A stretch of DNA of 62,567 bases, counting the filler, from Aduncisulcus paluster (taxonomy: Eukaryota), in the NCBI GenBank assembly GCA_024181965.1. It is 14 parts of 14 records of this genome, joined end to end, with 100 filler letters (N's around TTAATTAATTAA, not from the genome) between each part and the next. Parts side by side here need not be neighbours in the genome. Positions count along the whole stretch, not along the records: positions 44,037 to 47,039 come from BQXS01011496.1; 13 more parts are not named here. The stretch is one strand, 5' to 3'. Every line of letters begins with the position of its first letter. Position 1 is the stretch's first letter. The notes under the pieces are model-generated. The model saw only the letters and a list, made by a program, of their open reading frames with translations. It was not told the DNA's origin and searched no databases. Position numbers and translations under genes: made by a program. Shown here in pieces: positions 44,037 through 47,039 of the stretch.

Positions 44037-44485
44037 AATGGTGTGCCGTTTCCCGGGGTTGTGGCCTGATGGAAATATAATATCTAGGTGTATGAAGAAT
44101 CTAACCCATTTTGATCAGGATACAGAGTGATAAGTGATCATGTGTCGAGATTCCCTGTGGTGTAATGTTTATTTGGTATGGCTGTGTATAATAGTGTCTT
44201 TTCTCTGATGGTTCGTGTGAGTGCTTGCAAGCAACCCCTCAGAAAGTAAGGGGTGAGTGTGGTGACCATCTTGTTTTCGTGAATCTCTAACATATTATTG
44301 TTTATTATTTTGTTTTATTAATATTATTTCTATTTTATTATTATTTATATTCTTAATTTATTATATTTATTATGTTCCAACTTAGTCAATATTCTATTTT
44401 TAGATAATCTTGATTCTTCGTATAACTCAGTAAATTGTCTTCAAGCTTAGATTAAATTCCTTTCGGAAGCCTACTTGATACCACA
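44037..44485 (+). mobile_element. LTR retrotransposon E, 3' end: 3' region, PPT and 228-bp 3' LTR (44258-44485), inserted into the pol of element F
   Basis: The PPT AGAAAGTAAGGGGTGAG precedes TGTGGTGACCAT...TACCACA. The opposite-strand pol ORF loses similarity at this junction (...PLYNATNGPG|VVSS). Confidence 0.8.
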
Positions 44486-46451
44486 CCTGGACCATTTGTC
44501 GCATTGTACAGTGGTGCTGCTATTACAGCCATATTCGGGACAAATTCTCTTAGGAAATTAAGCATTCCCAGAAACGATTTCAATTGTCTCTTCGTTTTTG
44601 GTGTCCTAAACATGCGGATAACAGTTTTCTTCGATTCATCAATTTCAACCTTTCCTCTCTCAAACATGAACCCGAGATATTTCACCCTTTTATAACCAAA
44701 ATGACTCTTCTTCACATTGACGATAAGGTTTTTCTCCTTTAAGATCCTTACGACTTCTTTTGTTCGAGTGATAATATCTTCTTTTGTCTCAGCCATGATA
44801 AGAAGATCATCTAAATAACAAACACACCCTTCTAAATGACCGAAAAGTCTCTCCATGACCCTCTGAAAGTGTGAGGGTGCAGTTTTAATCCCGAAGGGCA
44901 TCACTCTCCACTCGTATACACCCCATGGTACAGCAAAAGCGGACAATTTCTCGCTTCCTTTCGCCATGGCAATATTATGATAGCCATTCTTCAGATCAAT
45001 TTGACTAAAATACTTCGCTTTCTGCAGCCTCTGGAAAAGATCAGCTTGCAGTGGGATTGGGAAAGTATCTGTCTGTACTTTTTCATTCAACTTTCGGAAA
45101 TCAATCACCATTCTCAATTTCTCATGATTCTTGACAACTATCGTTGGAGCTGGATTACCTGATTTGGTTGGTACGATATGTTTCCTTTTCAATAATTCGT
45201 CAATCTCTTTCCTTGCGAATTCTTGAAGCGCAAATGGTATGGGATATATTTGTTGTTTCATCGGGACGTCTCCTTCTGACTTCAACTTTATCTCAAATTC
45301 TTCCACGTTTGCTGTTTTCGTCATATCCACACTCTCAAAATACTCCAACAGTACTGGTGTTAATTCCTTCTTGACTTCATCTGCTATGTTGGCTTCTATC
45401 TCCTCCTTCTTCGGGAGATCCCTAATTTGGACTCCAAAGTCTTCTGAATCAATACTGTTACAACTTATCCTTTTTAACAGATCGTGTTTCAGGCAGGTGT
45501 CTCTTTTCAAAATCAATAGTGGTTGATTCTTACCCCTATTTCCGACAACCAGACATTCTTCTTTCAACACAATCGTTTCTTTCGCTACGTTTTCCATTGT
45601 TATGACAACATCTGTCATATACTTGATGATCCTCTCGGATCCATCTGCCAAAGATAATACGATGTGGCACGGTCTGAGCTTTAATTTCATCCGCTTCGCT
45701 AAACTTTCCGCGACGCACGACATCTCAGCCCCAGTATCCAATAATACTTCAATTTCCTTTCCTTTTATCTTTGCCGTTTCTTTAAAACCTGTCGAATATT
45801 TCGTAGCGTTTACTATTGTAGATATCTTCCGACATTCTGACGTCCAATGTCCTTTGGTCTTACATATCTTACAATAGCTGTGCTTCTTCTTGTCATCATG
45901 ACGATACTGGCTCTCAGAGGTTTCCTCAGAAGTTCCTCTCTTGGAATGTTTCCGTTTGCGATCTCTAGATCTACGAGGCTTGCCTTTCTTCTTCTTCTGG
46001 TACTTCCTTCTGATCTGGTATCATCCCTAGCTCTTTTGCTTCTTCAAAGGTTTCAAGAATCTCGTTCCAAACAATACCACCTTGTCTCAATAAGACTTTA
46101 ATTCCATCAATGTCATTCGGAGCTTCATCCACTTTCTCCAATATCTTCACCCTTTCAGCGAACCTTCTGGGTCTCAGACCATCAATGAATTTCGTCTTAA
46201 TATCCGGGATTGTCGTCATAGATGCTCCCTGGACGCGGGAGTAAAACTCATGTGCATACTCGGTAAAATTGGCCAATGTCCAATTTTTATCTGCCATTTT
46301 GAGTTCCTTGATTGAATCTACGACACTTTTAGTTGTTGAACATCCGAACGATTTGGACATTTCTTTAAATAACTCGTCATGCAGTTTTTTCTCGATGTCG
46401 ATGGTTTTATCGGTTAACCTTATGATTTTCTCATCGACTTTTTTAATCTTC
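44486..46451 (-). mobile_element. Ty3/gypsy element F internal region: gag, CCHC knuckle, protease and reverse transcriptase; truncated at both ends by other elements
   Basis: CKICKTKGHWTSEC, LLDTGAEMSCV, RMVIDFRKLN, IDLKNGYH, VMPFGIKTAPSHFQ, CYLDDLLI and LKSFLGMLNF. The PR-RT order indicates Ty3/gypsy. Confidence 0.95.
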
Positions 46452-47039
46452 TGTGGCCAAACTAACTATAATGCGGTCCAATTTATTAATAAACAGATCT
46501 CGAGCGAACCAATCTATTTTTAGAATGTCCCTGAGAATGGTCACCACATCCTCCTCTCACTTGAAGAGGGCATCTCATGGCCGAAACCCTGTTCTCCTCT
46601 TCGTGATCATTCTCTTGGCGTAACAAACAACTATTATTTAAGCAAACAACACTCTTTGACCCGTTTATAGTAGCATATACCGGCTACAGACGGTATTCTG
46701 ATCAAAATGGGCGCATGACGCATACAGCATCAATGCAAACATGAACACACATACAATCACAATCAAATGGCGTACACATACAACACATAACACGACATAT
46801 GGCGTACACACAACAACAACAACACAACAACAACAACACAACAACAACACAACAACACAACAACAACACAACAACAACACAACAAATGGCTTCGACACAA
46901 CAGAATCCAACACAACAACAACATATCCAGGGACACGACAAACAACAACAACAACAAACTTGCAGCTATCATATGGCATTGGCTTTTATGGAATCTTCGG
47001 ATGCACCGACCCGTGGCTTACAGTGCTGTCCGTGGCATT
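46452..47039 (-). mobile_element. Family-A element 3' end: GT-rich 3' region, PPT and 97-bp 3' LTR (46452-46548), inserted into the gag of element F
   Basis: The LTR is near-identical to 13543-13640. The minus-strand PPT GAGAGGAGGA directly precedes TGTGGTG. A (GTT)n-like tract lies at about 46810-46960. Confidence 0.85.

Follow-up and report, generated by a model that had tools for sequence, protein, structure and literature searches.

Two related families of long terminal repeat (LTR) retrotransposons in the free-living fornicate protist Aduncisulcus paluster carry a nearly identical 19-nt block, CCCATTTTGATCAGRATAC, upstream of their 3' LTRs, and the 14-nt core of each copy can pair, by Watson-Crick and G-U pairs alone, with a perfect palindrome at the 5' LTR junction of one of these families. 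The block lies in a stretch of 62,567 nt from assembly GCA_024181965.1 (hereafter the window), which is composed of 14 short contigs joined by 44N-TTAATTAATTAA-44N linkers (e.g. 3705-3804 and 43937-44036). Both copies are located on one 3003-nt contig (contig 9, 44037-47039), one in element E on the plus strand and the other in family A on the minus strand. The block is tentatively interpreted as a cis element of the 3' untranslated region (UTR) that would function on the sense strand by pairing with the palindrome after the LTR. Judged from their sequences, E and A are two related short-LTR families that share this block and have no tRNA-type primer-binding site. The features that carry this interpretation are as follows:

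44105-44123, plus strand: 3' motif of element E, CCCATTTTGATCAGGATAC, with the core ATTTTGATCAGGAT at 44108-44121 between the flanks CCC and AC
46693-46711, minus strand: 3' motif of family A, CCCATTTTGATCAGAATAC, with the core ATTTTGATCAGAAT from 46708 down to 46695 between the same flanks, CCC and AC
13530-13543, minus strand: 5' palindrome of family A, ATTTTGATCAAAAT, the first A of which is the last base of the 5' LTR (13640 down to 13543)
44135-44140, plus strand: second TGATCA of E, which local fold prediction places in the apical loop of a hairpin with the motif as its 5' arm
46604-46609, minus strand: second TGATCA of A, within the 82 nt from 46679 down to 46598 that begin with GT and end with AG

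The 19-nt block in the 3' regions of element E and family A

The two copies of the block (44105-44123 in E and 46711-46693 in A) are identical at 18 of 19 positions, and the core begins 150 nt before the 3' LTR in E and 160 nt before it in family A; the letters, strands and distances given in the first-pass annotation were all reproduced. When the two 3' regions are aligned, the only conserved islands are the 19-mer and a block that comprises CCCTC, the polypurine tract and TGTGGTGACCAT. The polypurine tract together with the LTR start is a known cis element. On either side of the motif, local alignment does not outperform shuffled sequences (p 0.74 before it and 0.33 after it), in keeping with the earlier description of the flanks as otherwise dissimilar. 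Allowing one mismatch, the two 3' internal regions share no ungapped match longer than the 19-mer, and one of 1000 dinucleotide-preserving shuffles reached this length. Across the window, ATTTTGATCARRAT with up to one mismatch gives six strand matches at four sites, against 0.88 expected, and none of 100 shuffles reached six.

Searches outside the window did not add further families. Rfam 15 returned no matches at E-values up to 1 for either strand of 44037-47039. A metagenome scan with the 19-mer identified 35 loci, about the number that we estimate would occur by chance in such a collection; none lies in a TGTGGTG-type LTR context, and their GC content and flanks look unrelated. Protein-guided scans with the pol of element F, the element into which E and A are inserted, gave 11 pattern matches in viral contigs and 116 in prokaryote contigs, none of which was confirmed.

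Both 3' regions are parts of very abundant repeats, unlike element F. The summed contig depth in a DNA sequencing run, which is not equivalent to copy number, is approximately 190,000 over the E internal region and 470,000-700,000 over the family-A 3' region and LTR, compared with 1,200-5,100 over element F. This contrast rules out that the E and A 3' regions are F sequence flanking solo LTRs. In a second sequencing run, the RNA nature of which is only a guess, a 412-nt contig covers 46452-46805 and none covers the E motif.

Absence from other copies, which the first-pass annotation had named as a possible refutation, was not encountered. A protein search with the translation of the frame that reads HFDQ through the motif identified four gene models on other contigs (P0005-P0008), all belonging to family A, and all four keep AHFDQNT in translation. 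A fifth model of 769 amino acids, P0009, is located on a 3003-nt contig and is identical to the translation of the contig described here; it is therefore not an independent copy. Further A. paluster gene models match at 98-100%. Among the variants listed for the DNA run, none at or above 5% falls inside either motif, and the variable positions near the A motif are 46656-46669 and 46690.

Three of the gene models (P0006-P0008) do not contain the 82 nt past the motif that include the second TGATCA. Genomic deletion variants were considered and rejected as the cause: P0009 skips the same GT..AG segment even though it is present in the DNA of its contig, and no joint at 46679-46598 is listed in either sequencing run. 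The missing segments are thus predicted introns of the gene models and are uninformative about the spacing in other copies. P0009 also removes a second GT..AG segment (46453-46566, minus strand) that holds the polypurine tract and nearly the whole LTR. Since it fuses a frame of the A UTR with the gag-pol of element F, this model is probably an annotation chimera.

The annotation had also pointed to a further TGATCA between the motif and the polypurine tract. It is present in both elements, but little weight can be placed on it because the start-to-start distance from the motif is unlike in the two (23 nt in E and 95 nt in A) and TGATCA occurs 24 times in the window.

Palindromes at the 5' LTR junctions and their pairing potential

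Perfect, family-specific palindromes are found at all four 5' LTR junctions of the window (ATTTTGATCAAAAT, AATTTGATCAAATT, AGTATTAATACT and CAATATTAATATTG), at 13530-13543 on the minus strand and at 13871-13884, 14367-14378 and 15605-15618 on the plus strand. Each takes in the last base or bases of the LTR. None of the four post-LTR junctions begins with the TGG of a tRNA-type primer site. Complementarity between the junction sequences and the tRNA-Ser(UGA) of the window, the only tRNA compared, reaches at most 7 nt. The LTRs likewise show no particular complementarity to the sequences that follow them, with the longest helices in the four families at 7-9 pairs including G-U (p 0.43-0.99 against shuffled LTRs). 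Within 80 nt downstream of the palindromes there is no close second copy, the best 9-mers having two or three mismatches; the only 9-mer with two mismatches in family A begins 3 nt past the palindrome. The gag ATG of families C and D is no more than 9 nt past the palindrome, and that of family A is located at 13477, 53 nt past it, at the head of an open reading frame (ORF) with 96% identity to a hypothetical protein of A. paluster. The only second copy of a palindrome that was seen is the 3' block. As all four palindromes have neither a complementary LTR nor a nearby second copy, a distant partner is plausible.

Both 3' motifs differ from the family-A palindrome by A-to-G changes alone, two in E and one in A, as had been claimed. 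This pattern is suggestive; with two or three independent changes it is not significant. The changes retain pairing with the palindrome on the sense strand of the motif's own element and on no other, which also agrees with the annotation. The G-U-tolerant pattern RTTTTGRTYRRRRT has four strand matches at three sites in the window, with 0.42 expected and none of 100 shuffles reaching four. The sites in the 62.6 kb that could pair with AUUUUGAUCAAAAU through Watson-Crick and G-U pairs alone are the palindrome itself and the two motifs. Between the A palindrome (13530-13543) and the A motif (46708-46695) there are 14 possible pairs, one of them G-U. The duplex with the A 5' region is predicted at -14.3 kcal/mol for the A motif and -13.7 kcal/mol for the E motif, and the palindrome with itself at -14.4 kcal/mol. 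These energies were calculated for short oligonucleotides only, as folding of long stretches yields meaningless whole-length structures, which were not used.

Several other features of the LTRs and junctions were observed. Four LTR copies are very short at 95-102 nt (46452-46548 and 13543-13640 on the minus strand, 14273-14367 and 15505-15606 on the plus strand), and the inverted ends of the short LTRs are TGTGG..CCACA, TGTTA..TAACA and TGTAAT..ATTACA. The LTRs of elements E and B are approximately 230 nt long with an AT-rich first part and are 75% identical over 65 nt. Directly before the family-A 5' LTR on contig 4 is GAGGTGGGGT (13641-13651, minus strand), which is polypurine-tract-like though it stands beside a 5' LTR, and this LTR is head to head with a 5'-truncated LTR of element B. 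The gag ORFs of A, D and F have a GLRP-type motif in common, as identified by eye; Pfam names none of the gag-like ORFs.

Possible roles of the block

The tentatively favored explanation is as follows. The block would repeat, in diverged form, the junction of the U5 end with the palindrome (CCACA-TTTTGATCAAAAT compared with CCCA-TTTTGATCAGRAT), and the perfect palindrome would occupy the primer-binding position after the 5' LTR. In genomic RNA, 14 pairs including one or two G-U would join the block to the 5' palindrome, either within one molecule or between it and the co-packaged RNA. Such pairing would bring the 3' R region beside the start site of the minus strand, and this proximity may aid initiation or the first strand transfer. 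That the block acts as RNA, that its partner is the 5' palindrome and that pairing has this outcome are all inferred. The first-pass annotation had proposed an RNA element that either cyclizes the genome or donates the primer; the ability to pair with the 5' palindrome is borne out by the predicted duplexes, and primer donation is disfavored, by inference, on the grounds given below.

Elements without a tRNA primer site have been described in other systems. Tf1 primes itself with the first bases of its transcript, which are complementary to its primer site, and to our knowledge the start of reverse transcription in the absence of a tRNA primer site has been solved for the Tf1 group only. The families described here resemble Tf1 as LTR elements that have no TGG primer site and would prime without a tRNA. 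They differ from it in that the helix between LTR and post-LTR sequence is no better than that of shuffled LTRs in any of the four families.

The four junction palindromes appear strikingly like CHSeq1 of GalEa, a fungal Ty1/copia element. According to the main text of its description, GalEa has no primer site and carries a 9-nt sequence, CTGATCAGT or CTAATTAGT, which forms a palindrome once the last A of the LTR is counted in (PMC5445492). CHSeq2 is a second copy with one mismatch located 12-41 nt downstream, and the function of this Conserved Hairpin Site is left unexplained in that text (PMC5445492), an account that is repeated in a bivalve TRIM paper (PMC6934838). The likeness extends to the missing tRNA-type site, the post-LTR palindrome that includes the final A of the LTR (seen at all four junctions here), TGATCA-type or AT-only cores that vary by family, and an imperfect second copy elsewhere in the RNA. 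The second copy of GalEa is nearby and forms a local hairpin with a fixed A/A mismatch, whereas here no copy is found within 80 nt and the second copy is in the 3' UTR. GalEa belongs to copia, with the integrase before the reverse transcriptase (RT) and an RVT_2 domain; the RT of element F, whose pol is the only one seen, is RVT_1 with the protease directly before it. No 3' copy is reported for GalEa in the main text of PMC5445492, although its additional files may hold data on the 3' end. In the literature search, no palindromic primer site accompanied by a second copy at the 3' end came to light, nor did any work on fornicate LTR elements.

Pairing between the ends of a genome at initiation is also featured in two yeast elements (PMC4974528). 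In Ty1, CYC5 pairs directly with CYC3 next to the primer site (PMC4974528), so that complementary sequences lie by the primer site and at the 3' end of the same RNA. Complementarity of this type, near the primer position and in the 3' UTR, is found in family A, the two ends being from different copies. Ty1 differs as it is primed by tRNAiMet, its CYC sequences are neither palindromic nor copies of the primer site, and their pairing is proven by compensatory mutations, whereas the pairing here is predicted from sequence. Ty3 has a bipartite 5'-3' primer-binding site, and its genome ends are bridged by the tRNA (PMC4974528). The likeness lies in having part of the initiation complex in the 3' UTR and the genome ends bridged at the start of reverse transcription; the difference is that the bridge in Ty3 is a tRNA, while the best match here is 7 nt with tRNA-Ser alone compared. 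Pairing of the block with the palindrome would be a long-range analogue of GalEa CHSeq1/CHSeq2 and of Ty1 CYC5:CYC3.

A broader proposal is that reverse transcription starts free of tRNA through RNA-RNA pairing of the palindrome, with the 3' block as an obligatory partner that closes the circle or that positions or supplies the extended 3' end. This would be a mode distinct from both tRNA priming and the fold-back priming of Tf1, and it is considered doubtful at present. Should it hold, the hairpin site of fungal GalEa might find its explanation in the same mode. Several families in a deep-branching protist have a palindrome of the GalEa kind, and two also have a G-U-tolerant copy near the 3' end, so the 3' block is a concrete and testable candidate for the partner of a palindromic site. 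If pairing occurs, families C and D would be expected to carry a 3' block of the TATTAATA type. Covariation of the 5' and 3' copies would imply that end-to-end pairing at initiation, as in Ty1 and Ty3, can use the substitute for the primer site itself; if they do not covary, the block still marks the 3' ends of very abundant repeats that fragment the assembly.

Several points weigh against the pairing interpretation. The motif self-duplexes are predicted at -16.0 kcal/mol (A) and -13.6 kcal/mol (E); the motif should be able to pair equally well with itself, and the predicted energies consequently do not single out its partner. The conserved CCC and AC flanks do not lengthen the helix with the 5' region, so pairing alone does not account for 19 conserved positions. 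The predicted local structures of E and A are unlike, since the hairpin of E (pair probabilities of about 0.6-0.8, with the second UGAUCA shown in the loop) has no equivalent in A. The comparison covers two families that are related, having the same LTR start; the 5' and 3' ends of A are from different copies on different contigs, E is seen at its 3' end only, and the A-to-G changes amount to two or three events. Within family A, approximately 45 codons upstream are as conserved as the motif, and the data from this family thus speak for its presence and not for any extra constraint.

Recognition by a protein comes next, as a possible though not probable role: the two ends of the RNA or cDNA would each carry a site that is bound through its sequence rather than as a helix, for example a Gag/nucleocapsid packaging signal or the target of an enzyme that processes the palindrome region. 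Such a site would account for the conservation of 19 positions, beyond the 14 that can pair, for CCC and AC being identical in A and E, and for CC(A)CA preceding the core in the same sense in both the 5' and the 3' versions, and the 3' flanks are not complementary to the 5' flanks. However, the A-to-G-only pattern and its restriction to the sense strand fit RNA pairing at least as well, and the family-specific 5' palindromes favor self-complementarity over a fixed protein site.

It is somewhat less likely that the block is a functionless relic of an old duplication, either of the LTR-leader junction or of a repeated UTR unit, with chance or a recent exchange accounting for the near identity of E and A. 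Upstream in the A UTR, the motif recurs in partial, decayed form (CCATTTGATTGTGAT; 32-nt repeats at 46744-46830), which indicates that the motif unit does duplicate and decay, and the mosaic joins between families (loose ends of the DNA run at 44214 and 44265/44266) are consistent with exchange. Nevertheless, an identity of 18 of 19 positions amid surroundings at random level is not expected of a relic, and a 19-nt exchange tract with unrelated flanks is hard to make by template switching. Nor is there anything LTR-like upstream of the motifs: the 68 nt upstream in E and the 120 nt upstream in A were compared with the six LTR copies of the window, and all 12 comparisons gave p values of at least 0.25. 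This also speaks against the remnant of a nested 5' LTR junction that the first-pass annotation had envisaged. The sole echo of an LTR end is CC-CA directly before the core, comparable to the LTR end CCACA.

It is improbable that the block works at the level of DNA, in the integrated element or the cDNA, for instance as part of an antisense promoter or by binding a dimeric host factor at its TGATCA core. The core is palindromic and TGATCA occurs four times in approximately 700 nt of the two 3' regions, compared with 0.39 per kb in the window, but the changes break the palindrome in DNA and not in sense RNA. On the opposite strand, the ATG opens no antisense ORF, with stops occurring after two to three codons.

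Donation of the primer by the block itself, in which cleavage of the RNA past the block would yield a 3' end that anneals to the 5' palindrome and is extended, is very unlikely. The lack of a tRNA-type site past any of the four LTRs and of Tf1-type complementarity leaves room for it, and the block is predicted to be able to anneal. The G-U pairs, however, would lie 3-4 nt from the 3' end of such a primer. In the retroviral scheme, plus-strand strong-stop DNA copies the primer. The 5' site would then presumably be overwritten with the G version, yet the one A 5' copy seen is a perfect palindrome, and among the variants listed none falls at the G position of the A 3' copies. A cut at this point would also split the polypurine tract and the 3' R from the rest of the template.

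Coding constraint, which the first-pass annotation had also raised and under which HFDQ(D/N)T would close a small ORF or pol, is highly improbable, even though the HFDQ frame is open in both elements and public gene models span the block. In family A, stops interrupt all three frames upstream of the motif in the first 70 nt or so from the contig end, after which the HFDQ frame opens again and passes through a GT-rich microsatellite, a sequence that cannot hold stop codons. This copy and P0008 read part of the microsatellite stretch in different frames. Inside the 19-mer none of the six third codon positions differs and the sole difference is non-synonymous, a pattern that in this sequence is the opposite of what protein constraint would produce at such divergence. 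The frame in E is open for the 70 nt available on the contig only, and its 30-residue peptide returned three hits among 1.84 billion representative proteins, all repetitive and unrelated. A match in the same frame upstream, VCR(F/V)PG, is better than expected for protein shuffles (p ~0.006), but it is not significant as DNA (p 0.74). The models that span the block include P0009, the chimera that splices out an LTR.

Anatomy of contig 9 and other features of the window

Besides the motifs, the following features were identified on the contig:

44486-46451, minus strand: element F, host of both insertions and of low depth, encoding gag (46451 to 45971) and zinc knuckle, protease and RT (46020 to 44486)
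44037-44257, plus strand: 3' internal region of E, truncated by the contig start, where it begins
44241-44257, plus strand: polypurine tract of E, AGAAAGTAAGGGGTGAG, with a preceding CCCCT that can pair with the AGGGG of the tract
44258-44485, plus strand: 3' LTR of E, 228 nt, TGTGGTGACC...GATACCACA, inserted in the RT gene of F
46712-47039, minus strand: 3' untranslated region of family A upstream of the motif, in which all three frames are stopped; it holds a GT-rich microsatellite along with 32-nt repeats and has high depth
46549-46558, minus strand: polypurine tract of family A, GAGAGGAGGA, with a preceding CCTCT that can pair with the AGAGG of the tract
46452-46548, minus strand: family-A LTR, 97 nt, TGTGGTGACC...TTTGGCCACA, abutting the middle of the F gag

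Element F is the insertion target of two other elements, the 3' end of E on the plus strand and the 3' end of family A on the minus strand, and its RT frame picks up again past the E LTR. The protease directly precedes the RT, which is the only one found in the window. The internal sequence of family A runs from 47039 down to 46559 on the minus strand, and the LTR starts with TGTGGTGACC are at 44258 (plus strand, E) and 46548 (minus strand, A). The family-A LTR exhibits 94.5% identity over 109 nt to the copy at 13543-13651.

The pyrimidine runs CCCCT and CCTCT lie 7-9 nt upstream of the G-rich part of the tracts (44235-44257, plus strand, and 46568-46549, minus strand), and CCCTC near the tracts is among the few columns that E and A conserve when aligned. 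A perfect 12-nt palindrome, TGCTTGCAAGCA, is located at 44222-44233 on the plus strand, 25 nt before the E LTR, with no counterpart seen in A. Near the polypurine tract and the LTR start the families form mosaics: some contigs of the DNA run follow the E 3' internal region up to TGTGGTG and then continue into at least two other LTR bodies (loose ends at 44265-44266), and others match E only from 44214 onward.

The 3' UTR of family A contains a GT-rich microsatellite and 32-nt repeats at 46744-46957 on the minus strand, the repeats being at 46744-46830. The repeat units hold decayed partial copies of the 5' part of the motif (GCCATTTG and CCATTTGATTGTGAT), and the intact copy in this UTR is the one nearest the LTR. 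A second, weak block is shared by E and A (GTGTGCCGTTTCCCGGG at 44041-44057 on the plus strand and GTTTGTCGTGTCCCTGG at 46943-46927 on the minus strand); this is the block that reads VCR(F/V)PG in the HFDQ frame.

The window contains 61,303 non-N bases with a GC content of 38.9%, in agreement with the 39.1% in the genome announcement of A. paluster (PMC9933649). Six gaps of 20 N are present (2400, 11295, 18004, 29179, 36677 and 49738), each lying between direct duplicates of 246-300 nt that are 100% identical, and these duplications look like unmerged assembly overlaps rather than biology. The sole tRNA gene is that of tRNA-Ser(UGA) at 17425-17507 on the minus strand. Long stop-free ORFs are found on most other contigs (e.g. 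19304-21964, 38638-41694 and 51174-53492), and their products include leucine-rich-repeat proteins, a protein kinase, G6PD, a Schlafen AlbA_2 domain protein and a Dzip1-like ciliary protein, along with many further ORFs of 400-950 amino acids that have no Pfam match.

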